From Escherichia coli (GTDB lineage Bacteria > Pseudomonadota > Gammaproteobacteria > Enterobacterales > Enterobacteriaceae), in NCBI RefSeq assembly GCF_003334405.1, contig NZ_QOWM01000011.1: a DNA stretch of 64,000 nt; one strand, 5' to 3'. Numbering within the stretch: position 1 is the stretch's first letter; the number at the start of each line of letters is the position of its first letter. The position numbers and the translations under genes were made by a program. Below the pieces are notes generated by a model that searched no databases, had not been told where the DNA came from, and worked only from the letters and a program-made list of their open reading frames with translations. Below are positions 22,222-55,855 of the stretch, one piece after another.

Positions 22222-22384
22222 CAGAAAAAAGAGGGTAGCAGCGTTAACTGCTACCCTCGAAGATTGTTACCCAGCGTATTGCGGTTTTCAGGCCCGATGG
22301 GGAACGACCATCAGGCGTATAGTCTGTCCGTGCTACGTAACAATCGAGAGGGCTGGAATTTCCGCCCCTGGTTCTTGTAATTAG
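22222..22384 (-). ncRNA. sroC: SroC-like sRNA from the gltI-gltJ spacer (3' end at intrinsic terminator hairpin)
   Basis: Hairpin gagggtagcag/ctgctaccctc (22231-22258) followed on the minus strand by a T6 run, just upstream of the gltJ start; location matches recalled SroC. Boundaries approximate. Confidence 0.5.
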
Positions 22385-23289
22385 TTCAGTGCCTTGTCAT
22401 TCGGTTCTTTGAACAGTGCTTTCATTTCGTCTGACAGTTCGAAATTCATGTTCAGGTTTTTCGGCGGAATTGGATTTTTGAACCACTTATCAAACCATTT
22501 TTCCGCTTCACCGGAGGTCTGCACCTGAGCGATGGTGTCATCCATCAGCTTTTTGAACTGCGGATCATCTTTACGCAACATACAACCGTAGGCCTCCTGA
22601 GACTGCGGCTTGCCGACGATTTCCCAGTTGTCTGGTTTCTTCGCTTTCGCACGTTCACCGGCCAGCAGAGCGTCATCCATCATAAAGGCAACGGCACGAC
22701 CGCTTTCCAGGGTGCGGAAAGAGTCACCGTGATCTTTGGCGCTGATGATGCGCATATTCATTTTTTGCTCTTCATTCAGTTTGTTGAGCAAAACTTCAGA
22801 GGTAGTGCCGGAAGTGACGACTACGGCTTTGTCTTTCAGGTTGGCAAAATCTTTGATATCGCCACCCTTTTTGGTCAACAGGCGCGTACCGACCACGAAA
22901 ATAGTGTCAGAGAAAGCCGCCTGTTTTTGGCGTTCGACGTTGTTGGTGGTAGAACCACATTCAAAATCGAAAGTGCCGTTTTGCAGCAGTGGAATACGGT
23001 TTTGTGAGGTAATCGGAATCAGTTTTACCTGCAAGTCCGGTTTGTTGAGTTTCTTTTTCACTGCTTCAACAATGGCGTTGGAGTAATCCTGCGAGTAACC
23101 CACCACTTTTTGCTGATTGTCGTAATAAGAGAAAGGCACTGAAGATTCACGGTGACCGACGACAATCACACCGTTTTTGGCGATTTTGTCCAGAGTACTG
23201 CCCGCTGCCGGGGCGGCGTCATCTGCCTGTGCCAGTCCTGCGGAAAGCGCCAGGGCGAGGATTGCTGTGGCAGGTTTACGTAATTGCAT
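22381..23289 (-). CDS. gltI: Glutamate/aspartate periplasmic binding protein
   Basis: ORF track 22381..23364; start placed at internal Met (MQLRKPATAILALALSAGLAQA, signal peptide) giving 302 aa. Confidence 0.9.
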   Translation of the reverse strand: MQLRKPATAILALALSAGLAQADDAAPAAGSTLDKIAKNGVIVVGHRESSVPFSYYDNQQKVVGYSQDYSNAIVEAVKKKLNKPDLQVKLIPITSQNRIPLLQNGTFDFECGSTTNNVERQKQAAFSDTIFVVGTRLLTKKGGDIKDFANLKDKAVVVTSGTTSEVLLNKLNEEQKMNMRIISAKDHGDSFRTLESGRAVAFMMDDALLAGERAKAKKPDNWEIVGKPQSQEAYGCMLRKDDPQFKKLMDDTIAQVQTSGEAEKWFDKWFKNPIPPKNLNMNFELSDEMKALFKEPNDKALN

Positions 23290-30772: not shown

Positions 30773-30847
30773 TGGCTGGGGTACGAGGATTCGAACCTCG
30801 GAATGCCGGAATCAGAATCCGGTGCCTTACCGCTTGGCGATACCCCA
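30773..30847 (-). tRNA. glnV: tRNA-Gln (anticodon CUG); glnV/glnX type
   Basis: 75 nt; revcomp TGGGGTATCGCCAAGCGGTAAGGCACCGGATTCTGATTCCGG...CCCCAGCCA; anticodon loop TTCTGAT. Only one CUG copy present, so glnV versus glnX is ambiguous. Confidence 0.93.
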
Positions 30848-30894
30848 ACAAATTGGTTTTGAATTTGCCGAACATATTCGACACATTCAGAATT

Positions 30895-30971
30895 TGGTGG
30901 CTACGACGGGATTCGAACCTGTGACCCCATCATTATGAGTGATGTGCTCTAACCAACTGAGCTACGTAGCC
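30895..30971 (-). tRNA. metU: tRNA-Met elongator (anticodon CAU)
   Basis: 77 nt; revcomp GGCTACGTAGCTCAGTTGGTTAGAGCACATCACTCATAATGATGGGGTCACAGGTTCGAATCCCGTCGTAGCCACCA. Confidence 0.93.
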
Positions 30972-30986
30972 AGATTGTTTCTTCGA

Positions 30987-31061
30987 TGGCTGGGGTACCT
31001 GGATTCGAACCAGGGAATGCCGGTATCAAAAACCGGTGCCTTACCGCTTGGCGATACCCCA
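30987..31061 (-). tRNA. glnU: tRNA-Gln (anticodon UUG); glnU/glnW type
   Basis: 75 nt; anticodon loop TTTTGAT in revcomp; only one UUG copy present, so glnU versus glnW is ambiguous. Confidence 0.93.
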
Positions 31062-31084
31062 TCCGTACAACGCTTTCTGGTGAA

Positions 31085-31169
31085 TGGTGCGGGAGGCGAG
31101 ACTTGAACTCGCACACCTTGCGGCGCCAGAACCTAAATCTGGTGCGTCTACCAATTTCGCCACTCCCGC
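31085..31169 (-). tRNA. leuW: tRNA-Leu (anticodon UAG)
   Basis: 85 nt with long variable arm; revcomp GCGGGAGTGGCGAAATTGGTAGACGCACCAGATTTAGGTTCTGG... Confidence 0.93.
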
Positions 31170-31178
31170 AAAAAAAGA

Positions 31179-31255
31179 TGGTGGCTACGACGGGATTCGA
31201 ACCTGTGACCCCATCATTATGAGTGATGTGCTCTAACCAACTGAGCTACGTAGCC
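31179..31255 (-). tRNA. metT: tRNA-Met elongator (anticodon CAU)
   Basis: 77 nt; identical in sequence to the tRNA at 30895..30971. Confidence 0.93.
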
Positions 31256-33546: not shown

Positions 33547-33646
33547 GCCGGATGCGGCGTGAACGCCTTATCCGGCCTACAAAAGCATGAAAATTCAATA
33601 TATTGCAGGAGCTGCGTAGGCCTGATAAGCGTAGCGCATCAGGCAG
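33547..33646. repeat. Composite REP-spacer-REP element (BIME/RIP-like), copy 1
   Basis: gccggatgcggcgtgaacgccttatccggcctac ... aatatattgcagg ... gtaggcctgataagcgtagcgcatcaggca; inverted orientation relative to copies at 41896 and 49386. Confidence 0.7.
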
Positions 33647-51067: not shown

Positions 51068-52387
51068 TTAACCGTGTTTATTTTTCAGTTCAAAGCGTGG
51101 TGATACCAGACCATACAGTGTCCAACCAAGGAAGGTCACGATGGAACCGTACAGCATGGCTTCTTCCCCGGATGAGTACAGCGCATAAAAGCTATACATC
51201 GCGCCAACAAAAGCAACAAAGTTTGCAACTTTCGCTTTTGAGGGGGGCACATTAGCGACCTTCTGAATAATGACTAATGCCGCCATTGACAGAATATACG
51301 GAATGATATTGGTCACCACGGCCAGGTTAACCAGCACGTTGAACTGACTGTTTAGCGACGGGCTAATGGTCATCAGTGCCAATCCACTCTGAATAATCAC
51401 AATGGTCAACATTCCCTGCACCGGTGCATCCACTTTGGTTACACGGGAGAAAATTTTAGGGAAGTAGCCTTCATCAGATGAAGATTTAAACACCTGGGCA
51501 ATGGTGAACTGCCAGCCAAGTAGCGAACCGCAGCAGGACATCACCATCAGCGCCATAATGACTTTACCCACTTCCGGCGTGAACATCTGCGCGAAGGCCA
51601 GACCAAATGGTGCCGTTGAATTTGCCAGCTCCATATTTGGCACAATCCCGGCAATCACGTTGGTGGAGACGATATAAATCACCGCCGCACCTAACGTACC
51701 GCCGAGTACCGCGATTGGCACATTACGTTCCGGGTTTTCCACTACATCAGTATTCGCACACGCAGACTCCAGACCAAGAAAAGCCCACAGCGTCATAGCG
51801 ATGGAAGAACCTACCGCACTGAAGAACGGTGCATGATGCGGATTCCAGGAATCAACGTACAGCGTCGGGCTAAACCAGAACCAGCCAATAATGCACAGAC
51901 CGACGACCGGAATAATGACCCCCCACACGGTAATGCTACTGATTTGCCCGGTAATGCGCGCACCACCAAAGTTAGCCACGGTACAAATCCACAGCACCCC
52001 GATGGTCGCAAGACCAATCTGCACTGGCGACAAACTCGCGCCGAGCAGTTCGGTGCCGTAACCAACCGCCGAAATAGCAATCGCGACGTTAGCAATCAGC
52101 AGTGAGACGCCGTAGGTATAGTTCGCCATAAAGTTACCGGATTTACCGAAAGCATACTCGGCATAACCGCCCATACCGCCTGATTTACGGCTGAACATAC
52201 CGCATTTTGCGAATGCCCATGCCAGTGCCATTGAGCCTACGGCTGTCACCAGCCAGGAGATAATTGAGATTGTCCCGACTTCGGCAAGCTTTGTCGGCAG
52301 CATGATGATACCGGAGCCCATCATGTTGACCATCGTCAGTATGGTTAACTGAACGACGCCCATTTTGTTCGATTTAGCCTGACTCAT
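51068..52387 (-). CDS. potE: Putrescine:ornithine antiporter
   Basis: ORF track 439 aa, APC-family transporter; 4-nt overlap with speF. Confidence 0.94.
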   Translation of the reverse strand: MSQAKSNKMGVVQLTILTMVNMMGSGIIMLPTKLAEVGTISIISWLVTAVGSMALAWAFAKCGMFSRKSGGMGGYAEYAFGKSGNFMANYTYGVSLLIANVAIAISAVGYGTELLGASLSPVQIGLATIGVLWICTVANFGGARITGQISSITVWGVIIPVVGLCIIGWFWFSPTLYVDSWNPHHAPFFSAVGSSIAMTLWAFLGLESACANTDVVENPERNVPIAVLGGTLGAAVIYIVSTNVIAGIVPNMELANSTAPFGLAFAQMFTPEVGKVIMALMVMSCCGSLLGWQFTIAQVFKSSSDEGYFPKIFSRVTKVDAPVQGMLTIVIIQSGLALMTISPSLNSQFNVLVNLAVVTNIIPYILSMAALVIIQKVANVPPSKAKVANFVAFVGAMYSFYALYSSGEEAMLYGSIVTFLGWTLYGLVSPRFELKNKHG

Positions 52388-54582
52388 AATTTTTCCCCTT
52401 TCAACAGGGTGCTTTGCGCATCACGAGGCTTGATGACATAGCACCAAACTTGCTTACGACCATCATGTTCTTCGATATAGACACCCTGCAGCTCCGGTGC
52501 AAAACCTGGCAGCAGGTTGATCCCTTCTTCCAGAGCGCTGAAGTAACGCAGAACAGCACCACCCCAGATTTCACCCGGAACAACACACAGCACACCCGGA
52601 GGATAAGGAAGCGCACCTTCGGCAGCGATACGGCCTTCTGCATCCGGCAGACGAACCAGTTCCACTTCACCGCGTAAATAGGCGTAGTTGGCTTCTTGCG
52701 GATTCATGCTGACGCGTGGGAAGTGCTCCTTACGGAACATCTCTTTTTGCAGTTGTTTCACGTTGTGGCGGGCATACAAATCATGCATTTCCTGACACAA
52801 CTGACGCAGGGTATAACCGGCGTAGCGCTCTTCATGCTGTTTGTAGATGGAAGGTAGCACTTCTGCTAATGGCGCGTCGGACTCAAGCAGTTTTTCGAAG
52901 CGTACCAGCAGGGCAACAAGTTGCTGAAGTTTGGCCATATCTTCTGCCGGAGTCAGCAGGAAGAGGATGGAGTTAAGATCGCATTTTTCCGGCACTACGC
53001 CATTTTCGCGCAGGAAGTTAGCAAGAATCGTCGCGGGTACACCGAACGCTTCATATTCGCCGTTACGTGCATCAATACCTGGGGTTGTCAGCAACAGTTT
53101 GCATGGATCGACAAAGTATTGATTCTCTGCATAGCCTTCAAAAGAATGCCAGTGTTCCCCTGGTACAAACTGGAAGAAGCGCAGATCAACCGCAATTTGC
53201 GCTGTTTCATACGACTGCCAGGGTTTACCATCCACCAGTTCAGGTACGAACGGACGAATATGCTGACAGTTATCGAGGATCAGTTTGCGGGCATTAATGC
53301 CATTTACCACACAATCCATCCACATATTACGACCGCTGACACCTTCATGCATTTTGGCGTTGATATCCAGTGCGGCAAACAGCGGATAGAACGGGCTGGT
53401 GGAGGCGTGCATCATAAAGGCGTTGTTCATGCGTTTGTGCGGTACATAACGCTGTTGCCCTTTGATGTGGCTGTCTTTTTTATGAATTTGTGAAGTCTGA
53501 GAAAAACCAGCCTGTTGTTTATGCACAGATTGCGTAACCAGAATACCCGGATCGTTCTCATTAAGATCCAGCAACAGCGGCGAACAGTCCGCCATCATCG
53601 GAATAAACTGTTCATAGCCGACCCATGCTGAGTCAAACAGGATGTAGTCACACAGATGACCAATTTTATCCACCACTTGGCGGGCGTTATAAATCGTACC
53701 GTCGTAGGTGCCTAACTGAATCACAGCGAGGCGGAAAGGACGAGCCTCTTTTGCCCGCTGCGGTGCGACTTCCGCGATCAGCTCACGCAGGTAACTTTCT
53801 TCAAAACAGTGCGCATCAATGCCACCGATAAAGCCATACGGGTTACGTGCCGTTTCCAGATAAACCGGTGTTGCACCAGCCTGTAGCAACGCTCCGTGGT
53901 GGTTAGATTTGTGGTTATTGCGATCAAACAGCACCAGATCACCCGGTGTTAGCAGGGCGTTTAAAACCACTTTGTTAGAAGATGAAGTGCCATTTAAAAC
54001 GAAGTAGGTTTTATCGGCATTAAACACTTTTGCCGCATGTTGCTGTGCAATGCATGGCGCGCCTTCGTGAATCAGCAGATCGCCCATCGCTACGTCGGCG
54101 TTGCACAAGTCGGCACGGAACAGCGCCTCACCAAAGTATTCCACAAACTGATTCCCCGCCGGATGGCGACGGAAAAATTCGCCGCCCTGATGACCAGGGC
54201 AATCAAACGCGCTGTTACCTTGATTGACATAATCGACCAGTGCGCGGAAGAAAGGTGGGCGCAGTTGAGTTTCATAATGGCTGGCAGCGGTTTCTAACTG
54301 GCGACCATAAAATTCTCGTCGCGATTCGCAATTCTCAAAGACACCCGAAATACGGGGCAAATACTCTGCGGGTACACGTTCTTGATTTTCAGTAGCAATA
54401 AATACCGGGATGCCATAACCCGTGGCATCGATTTCATCGAGTTTTCCGCATGTAACATCGTTGAGCGATAAAACTATTGCCGCCACATCGATATTACGAC
54501 TTTCATTAATGTAGATACATTCTCGCTGCGTGGTAAAACAGTCCGGGCAAGAATCACTAACCGCAATTTTTAATTTTGACAT
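52384..54582 (-). CDS. speF: Inducible ornithine decarboxylase
   Basis: ORF track 732 aa, recognised fold-I PLP decarboxylase sequence and length. Confidence 0.94.
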   Translation of the reverse strand: MSKLKIAVSDSCPDCFTTQRECIYINESRNIDVAAIVLSLNDVTCGKLDEIDATGYGIPVFIATENQERVPAEYLPRISGVFENCESRREFYGRQLETAASHYETQLRPPFFRALVDYVNQGNSAFDCPGHQGGEFFRRHPAGNQFVEYFGEALFRADLCNADVAMGDLLIHEGAPCIAQQHAAKVFNADKTYFVLNGTSSSNKVVLNALLTPGDLVLFDRNNHKSNHHGALLQAGATPVYLETARNPYGFIGGIDAHCFEESYLRELIAEVAPQRAKEARPFRLAVIQLGTYDGTIYNARQVVDKIGHLCDYILFDSAWVGYEQFIPMMADCSPLLLDLNENDPGILVTQSVHKQQAGFSQTSQIHKKDSHIKGQQRYVPHKRMNNAFMMHASTSPFYPLFAALDINAKMHEGVSGRNMWMDCVVNGINARKLILDNCQHIRPFVPELVDGKPWQSYETAQIAVDLRFFQFVPGEHWHSFEGYAENQYFVDPCKLLLTTPGIDARNGEYEAFGVPATILANFLRENGVVPEKCDLNSILFLLTPAEDMAKLQQLVALLVRFEKLLESDAPLAEVLPSIYKQHEERYAGYTLRQLCQEMHDLYARHNVKQLQKEMFRKEHFPRVSMNPQEANYAYLRGEVELVRLPDAEGRIAAEGALPYPPGVLCVVPGEIWGGAVLRYFSALEEGINLLPGFAPELQGVYIEEHDGRKQVWCYVIKPRDAQSTLLKGEKL

Positions 54583-54839
54583 TTTTCATCTCTTTATTTT
54601 AGGTAATAGCAGGTCCTCAATTTCTCGAATGAGAAATCGATCGTGCCGGAAAAAAGCAAAGTTACCCCGCTGATAAATAAATCAGGTAGATTGCTTTTTT
54701 CAGAATGCAGAAACCCTTACCAGTCAGGTGGCTGATAATACAAGGGTTAACAGAGAATGAGCACTGCGGAATACAGGCATATGCCTGTAATACAGAGAGT
54801 CAGGAAGACCTGTACGCTGAAGTGCCCTTAGTCGGTAGA

Positions 54840-54944
54840 CTAACGGGCATTGAAGAAGTGAAAGTCGAAGCTATTGCGATGAGCAAACTTCATAATATGA
54901 GTTGTCCGCCTTATATGGGGCATAGTGCGGCTGTTATTTTCCAT
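54840..54944 (-). CDS. speFL: speF leader peptide SpeFL (34 aa, ornithine-sensing arrest peptide)
   Basis: Revcomp of 54840-54944 reads ATG GAA AAT AAC AGC CGC ACT ATG CCC CAT ATA AGG CGG ACA ACT CAT ATT ATG AAG TTT GCT CAT CGC AAT AGC TTC GAC TTT CAC TTC TTC AAT GCC CGT TAG = MENNSRTMPHIRRTTHIMKFAHRNSFDFHFFNAR; not in ORF track (too short). Confidence 0.75.
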   Translation of the reverse strand: MENNSRTMPHIRRTTHIMKFAHRNSFDFHFFNAR

Positions 54945-55115
54945 TTAATTTACCTTTCCTGATGTGAATGAAGGTGAAGATATTCTATCCAGGAAATACG
55001 GTTGAACTGTGAAGGTGATCAATAAAAAATGATCAATCTTAATTTATTTAATGATGAGCTTTTTACTCAGTAATATAAAATATTGAATTGTTATTTTTGT
55101 GTGTTGTTTAAGATA

Positions 55116-55143
55116 AAAAGCCGTATTTATTATTACGGCTTTA
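55116..55143. terminator. Terminator hairpin downstream of kdpE (end of kdp operon)
   Basis: aaagccgta-tttatta-tacggcttt with flanking A and T runs, 35 bp past the kdpE stop. Confidence 0.6.
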
Positions 55144-55177
55144 ATTAATAAAAGGCAGGCTGTATTAAAATTAATAT

Positions 55178-55855
55178 TCAAAGCATAAACCGATAGCCAA
55201 TACCGGTTTCAGTAATGAAATGGCGTGGGCGGGCGGGATCCTGTTCCAGTTTTTGTCGCAGATGTCCCATATAAATACGCAAATAGTGACTGTGTTCGAC
55301 CGCGTTTGGCCCCCACACCTGGTTAAGGAGCTGGCGCTGGGTGAGTACTTTTCCGGCATTGTTGAGCAGCACCGCCAGCAGGCGGAACTCAATTGGTGTG
55401 AGATGCACCTCTTCCTCACCCCGGTGAATCACGCGGGCGGCTAAATCGACGGTAACATCGGAAAATTTTACCAGCGGATCGGGCGCGGTGGTGGCAGAGT
55501 GGCGGCGTAATGCGACGCGCAGACGGGCCTGCAATTCGCCAATGCCAAACGGCTTACTCAGATAATCATCCGCTCCGGCATCCAGCGCGGCGATTTTGTC
55601 GCTCTCTTCGCTGCGTGCGGAAAGCACAATCACCGGCACCGCGCTCCACTGGCGCAGGTCGCGGATAAACTCAATCCCATCACCATCGGGCAGGCCGAGA
55701 TCGAGAATAATCAAATCTGGCTTACGGGTTGCCGCTTCCAGCAAGCCGCGTTGCAGCGTTTCGGCCTCAAAGACGCGCATCCCGTCGCCCTCCAGCGCCG
55801 TGCGCAGAAAGCGACGAATAGCCTGTTCATCTTCAACAATCAGAACGTTTGTCAC
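55178..55855 (-). CDS. kdpE: Response regulator KdpE (OmpR family)
   Basis: ORF track 225 aa; receiver domain ([17 protein letters not shown]) plus winged-helix domain. Confidence 0.95.
   Translation of the reverse strand: MTNVLIVEDEQAIRRFLRTALEGDGMRVFEAETLQRGLLEAATRKPDLIILDLGLPDGDGIEFIRDLRQWSAVPVIVLSARSEESDKIAALDAGADDYLSKPFGIGELQARLRVALRRHSATTAPDPLVKFSDVTVDLAARVIHRGEEEVHLTPIEFRLLAVLLNNAGKVLTQRQLLNQVWGPNAVEHSHYLRIYMGHLRQKLEQDPARPRHFITETGIGYRFML

Follow-up and report, generated by a model that had tools for sequence, protein, structure and literature searches.

The 34-codon open reading frame between kdpE and speF of an Escherichia coli contig is almost certainly speFL, the metabolite-sensing leader of the speF-potE operon

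The interval between kdpE and speF in Escherichia coli raises the question of whether a minus-strand frame of just 34 codons is a genuine gene and, if so, by what means it might act on the genes that follow it. An earlier note on a 64,000-nucleotide stretch of E. coli DNA (contig NZ_QOWM01000011.1; this whole stretch is hereafter the window) had pointed to such a frame, absent from the list of ORFs that accompanied it, and had identified it as the leader peptide SpeFL. Both its coordinates and its translation were recovered exactly, with our ORF listing containing a 34-aa ATG-initiated ORF at precisely 54840-54944 on the minus strand, which translates as MENNSRTMPHIRRTTHIMKFAHRNSFDFHFFNAR followed by TAG. 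The distance of 257 nt from its stop to the speF start codon (54582) was likewise as described, comprising bases 54839-54583, and the same spacer length is quoted in the original account of SpeFL (Herrero del Valle et al., 10.1101/604074). The genes of the locus are arranged as follows:

55178..55855, minus strand: kdpE, a 225-aa ORF upstream of speFL
54840..54944, minus strand: speFL coding sequence, 34 codons and a TAG stop at 54842-54840, from the sequence and its translation
52384..54582, minus strand: speF, the inducible ornithine decarboxylase and regulated gene, a 732-aa ORF annotated as speF in identical RefSeq DNA
51068..52387, minus strand: potE, the putrescine-ornithine antiporter and second gene of the operon, a 439-aa ORF annotated as potE that overlaps the end of speF by 4 nt

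A frame of this size is unremarkable in itself, as the surrounding 8 kb contain 129 mechanically called ORFs of at least 20 aa, several of which are exactly 34 aa long; hence, length alone constitutes no evidence and the case has to rest on identity and conservation. A search across all PDB chains with the translated peptide recovered a single match, the 34-residue chain labeled 'SpeFL' of the entries 6TBV and 6TC3, with all 34 residues identical (E = 7.6e-20), which also settles the alignment to published SpeFL that the earlier note had proposed as a check. A scan of Pfam-A recovered the family PF10940, 'Leader peptide SpeFL' (E = 4.6e-5), and megablast of a 751-bp region against 5426 complete E. 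coli genomes found matches of 100% identity, where the RefSeq record carries a feature named 'speFL: leader peptide SpeFL' flanked by kdpE and speF, potE coming after speF. A scan of NCBIfam with the peptide at E-values up to 1 returned no family, and an Rfam scan of positions 54400-55300 at a permissive threshold returned no curated RNA family for the leader; these are gaps in the libraries rather than contrary evidence. The sole Rfam match in that interval, to a Tetrahymena snoRNA, scored 21.9 bits against a gathering score of 60 and is a sub-threshold chance hit.

Amino-acid conservation in related genomes, whose absence the earlier note had regarded as fatal to its own reading, was assessed with 80 loci encoding relatives of SpeF, drawn from one genome per species, by scanning the 1500 nt upstream of each decarboxylase gene for SpeFL-like ORFs with the opposite strand as a control. 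About 60 of the 80 loci possess such an ORF, situated 165-500 nt upstream of the decarboxylase gene and scoring 43-182 against 18-33 for the opposite-strand controls. These loci include those from Escherichia albertii, Citrobacter, Enterobacter, Kluyvera, Cedecea, Hafnia, Edwardsiella, Serratia, Yersinia, Morganella, Plesiomonas, Shewanella and Sutterella, while the 1500 nt upstream of more distant speF homologues, such as the Pseudomonas loci and the additional copies found in Yersinia, Serratia and Edaphovirga, contained no SpeFL-like ORF. Codon statistics were computed on 48 non-identical 34-codon orthologues lying upstream of speF homologues. Their third codon positions are about three times more variable than the first or second (summed column entropies of 13.3, 9.9 and 32.5 for positions 1, 2 and 3, respectively), and in the speFL frame the mean pairwise pS of 0.77 far exceeds the pN of 0.115 (pN/pS of about 0.15), whereas the order is reversed when the frame is shifted by +1 or +2 (pN/pS above 1), indicating that the DNA is conserved as the speFL protein-coding frame. 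Nine residues, H10, I11, R12, R13, H16, M18, R23, F26 and F28, are invariant in all 48 orthologues despite synonymous variation, and the stop codon is TAG in 29 of them and TAA in 19. This frame-specific purifying selection, together with complete identity to a structurally solved chain, places the ORF well above chance. Accordingly, the ORF is almost certainly speFL, the leader ORF of speF-potE, encoding a cis-acting metabolite-sensing arrest peptide.

The internal organization of the peptide can be described in terms of two overlapping segments:

54897..54917, minus strand: ornithine-recognition loop HIRRTTH (HIRRXXH), codons 10-16, from the sequence and the published motif definition
54843..54905, minus strand: effector domain, codons 14-34 (F20, F26, F28, F30, F31, N32, A33, R34), from the published domain definition and mutagenesis

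The first of these shows the complete signature H10-I11-R12-R13-T14-T15-H16, whose H10, I11, R12, R13 and H16 are retained in 48 of 48 orthologues. Its two arginines are specified by rare codons, AGG at codon 12 (54911-54909) and CGG at codon 13 (54908-54906); a rare arginine codon (AGG, AGA, CGA or CGG) occupies codon 12 in 47 of the 48 orthologues, and codon 13 is CGG or CGA in 38. All five phenylalanines of the effector core (F20, F26, F28, F30 and F31) are present, with F26 and F28 being universal in the set while alternating between TTT and TTC, and positions 30 and 31 being aromatic or leucine. The suggestion in the earlier note that the C-terminal HFFNAR-stop arrangement is the arrest motif does not hold for that segment by itself, as arrest involves the sensor HIRRXXH (residues 10-16) and the effector phenylalanine cluster at positions 20, 26, 28, 30 and 31. 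The last six residues vary among the orthologues, taking forms such as HLFNAR, HLFNSK, AFFNFR and SYYHYR; R12, R13, H16, R23 and F26 are preserved even out to Shewanella and Sutterella.

These features can be placed on the published structures and biochemistry of the identical sequence (Herrero del Valle et al., bioRxiv 10.1101/604074, later Nat Microbiol 2020; PDB 6TBV and 6TC3), with which the earlier claim that ornithine sensing in the exit tunnel controls speF-potE is in full agreement. In that work the N-terminal HIRRXXH loop (residues 10-16) and 23S rRNA jointly recognize ornithine, and structures at 2.7 Å place a single L-ornithine between 23S rRNA and P9, R12 and R13 of the N-terminal sensor, while the C-terminal effector is compacted around F26 with F20, F28, F30 and F31 near the peptidyl transferase centre, and N32 displaces U2585 such that RF1 accommodation is prevented. 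Arrest requires the F20/F26/F28/F30/F31 core, stalling survives the N32A substitution, and any of the stop codons is accepted and indeed used across species. Toeprints obtained with the same sequence were ornithine-dependent and puromycin-resistant, with codon 33 or 34 in the P-site, ornithine-dependent stalling was lost on a frame-shifted template, and bicyclomycin derepression was shown for the E. coli leader (10.1101/604074). Subsequent publications count SpeFL, with TnaC and MsrDL, among the established sensors. Ornithine dependence, the RF1 block and the involvement of Rho are supplied by published experiments on this very sequence, and the ORF identity, motifs, coding-frame selection, conserved hairpin and complementarity to the ribosome-binding site (RBS) were computed here.

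Several elements of the leader RNA and its promoter could be delineated around the ORF:

55117..55142, minus strand: terminator-like hairpin after kdpE, separating the kdp transcript from the speFL promoter
54982..54987, minus strand: putative -10 hexamer TAGAAT, shared without change by the two E. coli alleles and E. albertii
54953..54960, minus strand: Shine-Dalgarno-like AGGAAAGG, 8 nt upstream of the speFL ATG, read from the sequence
54853..54866, minus strand: predicted 5' arm of a long-range helix, in speFL codons 27-31, pairing with 54578-54594 in the minimum free energy (MFE) fold
54823..54849, minus strand: stop-codon hairpin UGCCC-G-UUAGUC/UACC/GACUAA-GGGCA, enclosing the speFL stop in both MFE and centroid folds
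54583..54839, minus strand: speFL-speF spacer of 257 nt, a structured leader with the Rho-dependent premature termination zone just downstream of the hairpin
54578..54594, minus strand: predicted 3' arm of the long-range helix, covering the speF Shine-Dalgarno and AUG (RBS sequestration)

The stop-codon hairpin, which is also described by Herrero del Valle et al. (10.1101/604074) and Ben-Zvi et al. (PMC6386406), has been proposed to be an RNA polymerase pause hairpin that is unwound by the ribosome reaching the stop. In an alignment of 28 Enterobacteriaceae 87% of its cells are paired, compared with 20-43% after displacement of the 3' partner by 1-3 columns; four pairs have changed on both sides, including a closing pair alternating between U-A and C-G and a GUC/GAC to CCG/CGG replacement in one Enterobacter, and none of 500 shuffles reached the observed covariation. 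The leader as a whole folds well below shuffled sequences (z-scores of -3.6 and -4.0). Over 54900-54720, an interval that begins in the distal portion of speFL and reaches some 120 nt past it, C outnumbers G with a C/G ratio of 1.5-1.9, a modest excess that is compatible with a rut site without proving one. The long-range helix was found in the MFE structure of a 431-nt fold, and its complementarity recurs across most of the Enterobacteriaceae loci. At C116/A117 (54860/54859, with partners at 54587/54588) it coincides with the bases that were mutated and compensated in Salmonella to validate the equivalent helix.

With respect to initiation, the Salmonella transcript begins 31 nt upstream of the AUG of the corresponding leader ORF, orf34, which has the Shine-Dalgarno sequence AGGA and is efficiently translated as a lacZ fusion (Ben-Zvi et al., PMC6386406). 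By analogy, transcription in E. coli probably starts at about 54975, which would put the speFL AUG at +32; a scan of 54400-55300 for consensus sigma-70 promoters found none, so this start site is placed by homology only. About 30-55 nt upstream of it lies a conserved block, ATCATTTTTT(A/G)TTGATC..CTTCACAG (55007-55029, minus strand), which has hardly changed between the two E. coli alleles and E. albertii amid otherwise diverged DNA, and which may be a regulator-binding site for acid or anaerobic induction. A further element of the leader is a long stem of A- and U-tracts, AAAAAAGCAAU...ACUUUGCUUUUUU, at 54650-54700 on the minus strand, approximately 70-120 nt upstream of the speF AUG; it was flagged by the terminator scan, and both the second E. 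coli allele and E. albertii retain it. No intrinsic terminator was found in the Salmonella leader by Ben-Zvi et al. (PMC6386406).

The above-described elements and the published experiments together point to the following course of events. Transcription would commence some 31 nt upstream of the speFL AUG and RNA polymerase would pause at the hairpin containing the speFL stop codon, which the ribosome translating speFL would then melt. When ornithine is low, RF1 would free SpeFL at the UAG and leave the C-rich leader RNA bare, permitting Rho to load on it and end transcription before speF, with the distal part of speFL remaining paired to the speF RBS. When ornithine is ample, one L-ornithine molecule would be trapped between 23S rRNA and the nascent HIRRXXH loop (residues 10-16), upon which the phenylalanine-rich C-terminal domain would compact, push U2585 aside and block RF1. 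The ribosome parked on codon 34 and the UAG, with others queued behind it, would prevent the loading of Rho, such that transcription could proceed into speF-potE with the speF RBS held open. The rare arginine codons 12 and 13 would additionally slow the ribosome and thereby tune both Rho access and the folding of the sensor.

These same codons are at the heart of the alternative that survives best, according to which the ORF is mainly a classical attenuation-type sensor of arginine supply, wherein the speed of the ribosome over codons 12 and 13 picks between leader folds, with RNase G degrading one of them, and the capture of ornithine is secondary. The conservation of the rare arginine codons and the strong structure of the leader would suit such a device, and Ben-Zvi et al. 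(PMC6386406) report an arginine-dependent repression that needs codons 12 and 13 as well as the native stop position and operates via RNase G. However, purifying selection extends over the whole peptide rather than codons 12-13 alone, and arginine regulation persists when the rare codons are replaced by frequent ones (Ben-Zvi et al., PMC6386406). Moreover, a doubly frame-shifted template loses ornithine stalling and R12 and R13 contact ornithine directly in the structure (10.1101/604074). As a replacement for the arrest mechanism this alternative is hence quite improbable, and arginine attenuation is best seen as an extra layer upon that mechanism. At a still greater remove is the notion that the frame arose by chance within a purely RNA-based leader and that the sequence of the peptide is irrelevant. 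The abundance of short ORFs (129 of at least 20 aa in 8 kb) and a leader that folds far below shuffled controls might have lent it some appeal, but its probability is vanishingly small: it is refuted by the exact match to the peptide seen in the ribosome tunnel (6TBV/6TC3), by a pN/pS of about 0.15 in the speFL frame only with threefold higher third-position variation, and by the published frameshift control that abolishes stalling (10.1101/604074). Finally, there is practically no prospect that the real gene is the 85-aa ORF antisense to speFL (54705-54962, plus strand), which, despite being the longest mechanical ORF of the intergenic region, was rejected because stops break its frame in 24 of the 48 orthologous loci, including the majority E. 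coli allele, and which has no annotation in RefSeq.

Reading the ORF as speFL also allows it to be compared with other known leaders. No difference was found from the SpeFL of E. coli characterized by Herrero del Valle et al., the allele in the window being the one studied by them. The orf34 of Salmonella Typhimurium (Ben-Zvi et al. 2019, PMC6386406) is the orthologous 34-codon leader and agrees with it in the position of the AUG at +32 (as deduced here for E. coli), in having AGG-CGG at codons 12-13, in the stop-codon hairpin, in Rho termination just downstream, and in the pairing of the distal ORF with the speF RBS at the same C116/A117. It differs in having a UGA rather than a UAG stop and a longer leader, with the speF AUG at +516 as opposed to about +394 as estimated here, and control by arginine and RNase G has been demonstrated in Salmonella only. 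In that organism, AUG and stop mutants of orf34, which abolish or truncate its translation, yield a Rho-terminated RNA of 157 nt, and translation of orf34 opens the helix sequestering the speF RBS, as validated by compensatory mutations (PMC6386406).

A second point of comparison is TnaC, the tryptophan-sensing leader of tnaCAB, in which there is likewise a ligand-dependent arrest at the stop codon, the stalled ribosome blocks Rho termination in the leader and U2585 participates in the exclusion of the release factor. Unlike SpeFL, TnaC has an unrelated sequence ending in Pro-UGA, senses L-Trp and blocks RF2; its ligand binds late, after the peptide is complete, while that of SpeFL is captured early via the N-terminal sensor hairpin. 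The signature of TnaC comprises conserved Trp12, Asp16 and Pro24 followed by UGA, upstream of tnaA. The peptide in the window lacks tryptophan, has asparagine at position 24, terminates in Arg-UAG and precedes speF; it works like TnaC and is not a member of the TnaC family. MsrDL, PepNL and the candidate MdtU are likewise short upstream ORFs (uORFs) in which the nascent chain blocks termination or pauses ribosomes to control the downstream gene, with MdtU having been proposed to link polyamine sensing with Rho termination. They differ from SpeFL in their sequences, in their ligands (macrolides for MsrDL, none for PepNL and, as proposed, spermidine for MdtU) and in their structural solutions.

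At the periphery of the phyletic distribution, SpeFL-like uORFs such as MHVNAYVQNSVIRRIRHIMCFVCRSCFSFHRFSSASTNAS occur in beta-proteobacterial loci from Sutterella and Burkholderiaceae metagenome-assembled genomes (L055, L060, L067, L068 and L081), about 165-400 nt upstream of the speF homologue. They lack the His10 of HIRRXXH and run 3-15 residues past position 34; given that they extend beyond the E. coli stop position, their arrest, if any, cannot be the same termination arrest. The idea that they extend the SpeFL family was dropped, all of them already matching PF10940. In one of these loci (L060) the decarboxylase gene is followed by a 445-aa ORF on the same strand. A separate situation is encountered in Escherichia sp. 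ESNIH1 (L074, 1258-1500) and Pseudocitrobacter faecalis (L033), which encode a decarboxylase 81% identical to SpeF; the 1500 nt scanned upstream of it contained no SpeFL-like ORF in either locus. In ESNIH1 this gene lies 243 nt after kdpE and is not followed by a potE on its strand, which gives it the appearance of a leaderless speF-like gene devoid of potE.

Within E. coli itself, a tract of about 1.5 kb (approximately 53900-55450), encompassing the 3' end of kdpE, the speFL leader and the first 680 nt or so of speF, exists in two sharply divergent versions. Inside the tract the two are 59-88% identical, compared with 96-100% in the flanking DNA, and PotE does not differ at the protein level. 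By blastn of the ORF against 5426 complete genomes, the K-12-type allele, which is the one in the window, is present in 1699 (identity of 99% or above), and encodes a SpeFL beginning MENNSRTM (S5/T7) with a spacer of 257 nt. The majority allele, exemplified by O4:H5 CU532-9, is present in 3340 of the 5426 at 80-90% identity, and encodes MENNNRLM (N5/L7) with a spacer of 309 nt. No donor of the K-12-type allele was recovered among the sampled species: in the 5' DNA of speF the other E. coli allele is at least as close to it as any of them, and in the leader the margin in favor of Citrobacter is slight. A literature search for a described polymorphism of speF/potE among phylogroups gave nothing relevant, as judged by titles and the openings of abstracts. 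That the two alleles represent a maintained regulatory dimorphism, and not merely a neutral scar of recombination, seems unlikely; were it true, the two leaders would differ in their responsiveness to ornithine, arginine, Rho or RNase G. Where the second allele is present, RefSeq carries a 44-aa 'hypothetical protein', WP_001295874.1 (L082, 2902-3036), which overlaps the promoter and start of speFL and is probably a spurious call. Another variant is found in E. coli WP7-S17-ESBL-04 (L083, 660-1488), where an IS1A has inserted into speFL after approximately codon 10, equivalent to position 54915 or so of the window, and has replaced the N-terminus of SpeFL, with RefSeq labeling the remnant 'hypothetical protein'. 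This is a natural disruption of speFL, in which the sensor hairpin and promoter are split from the remaining leader.

Elsewhere in the window, a cluster of five tRNA genes is present at 30773-31255 on the minus strand, namely Gln(CUG), Met, Gln(UUG), Leu(UAG) and Met. The corresponding cluster of K-12 MG1655, metT-leuW-glnUW-metU-glnVX, comprises seven genes; on this count, one copy of each Gln tRNA pair has seemingly been lost here. Rfam additionally recovered, above the gathering score, the sroC sRNA at 22223-22385 on the minus strand (174.8 bits) and the ES036/CssrF sRNA at 33581-33623 on the plus strand (41.1 bits).

In conclusion, all features of SpeFL and PF10940 that could be tested here are present, and the sequence holds nothing that argues against the SpeFL reading. 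As speFL in this form is already characterized and already annotated in RefSeq, the locus adds no new biology. Recognizing it has a use in the correction of annotations wherever cut-offs on ORF length drop 34-codon genes, and it also serves as a positive control, in that a genuine micro-ORF proved recognizable from raw sequence. SpeFL itself is a textbook-grade case of the ribosome as a sensor of small molecules, and through it enteric bacteria control their acid- and ornithine-inducible synthesis of putrescine.
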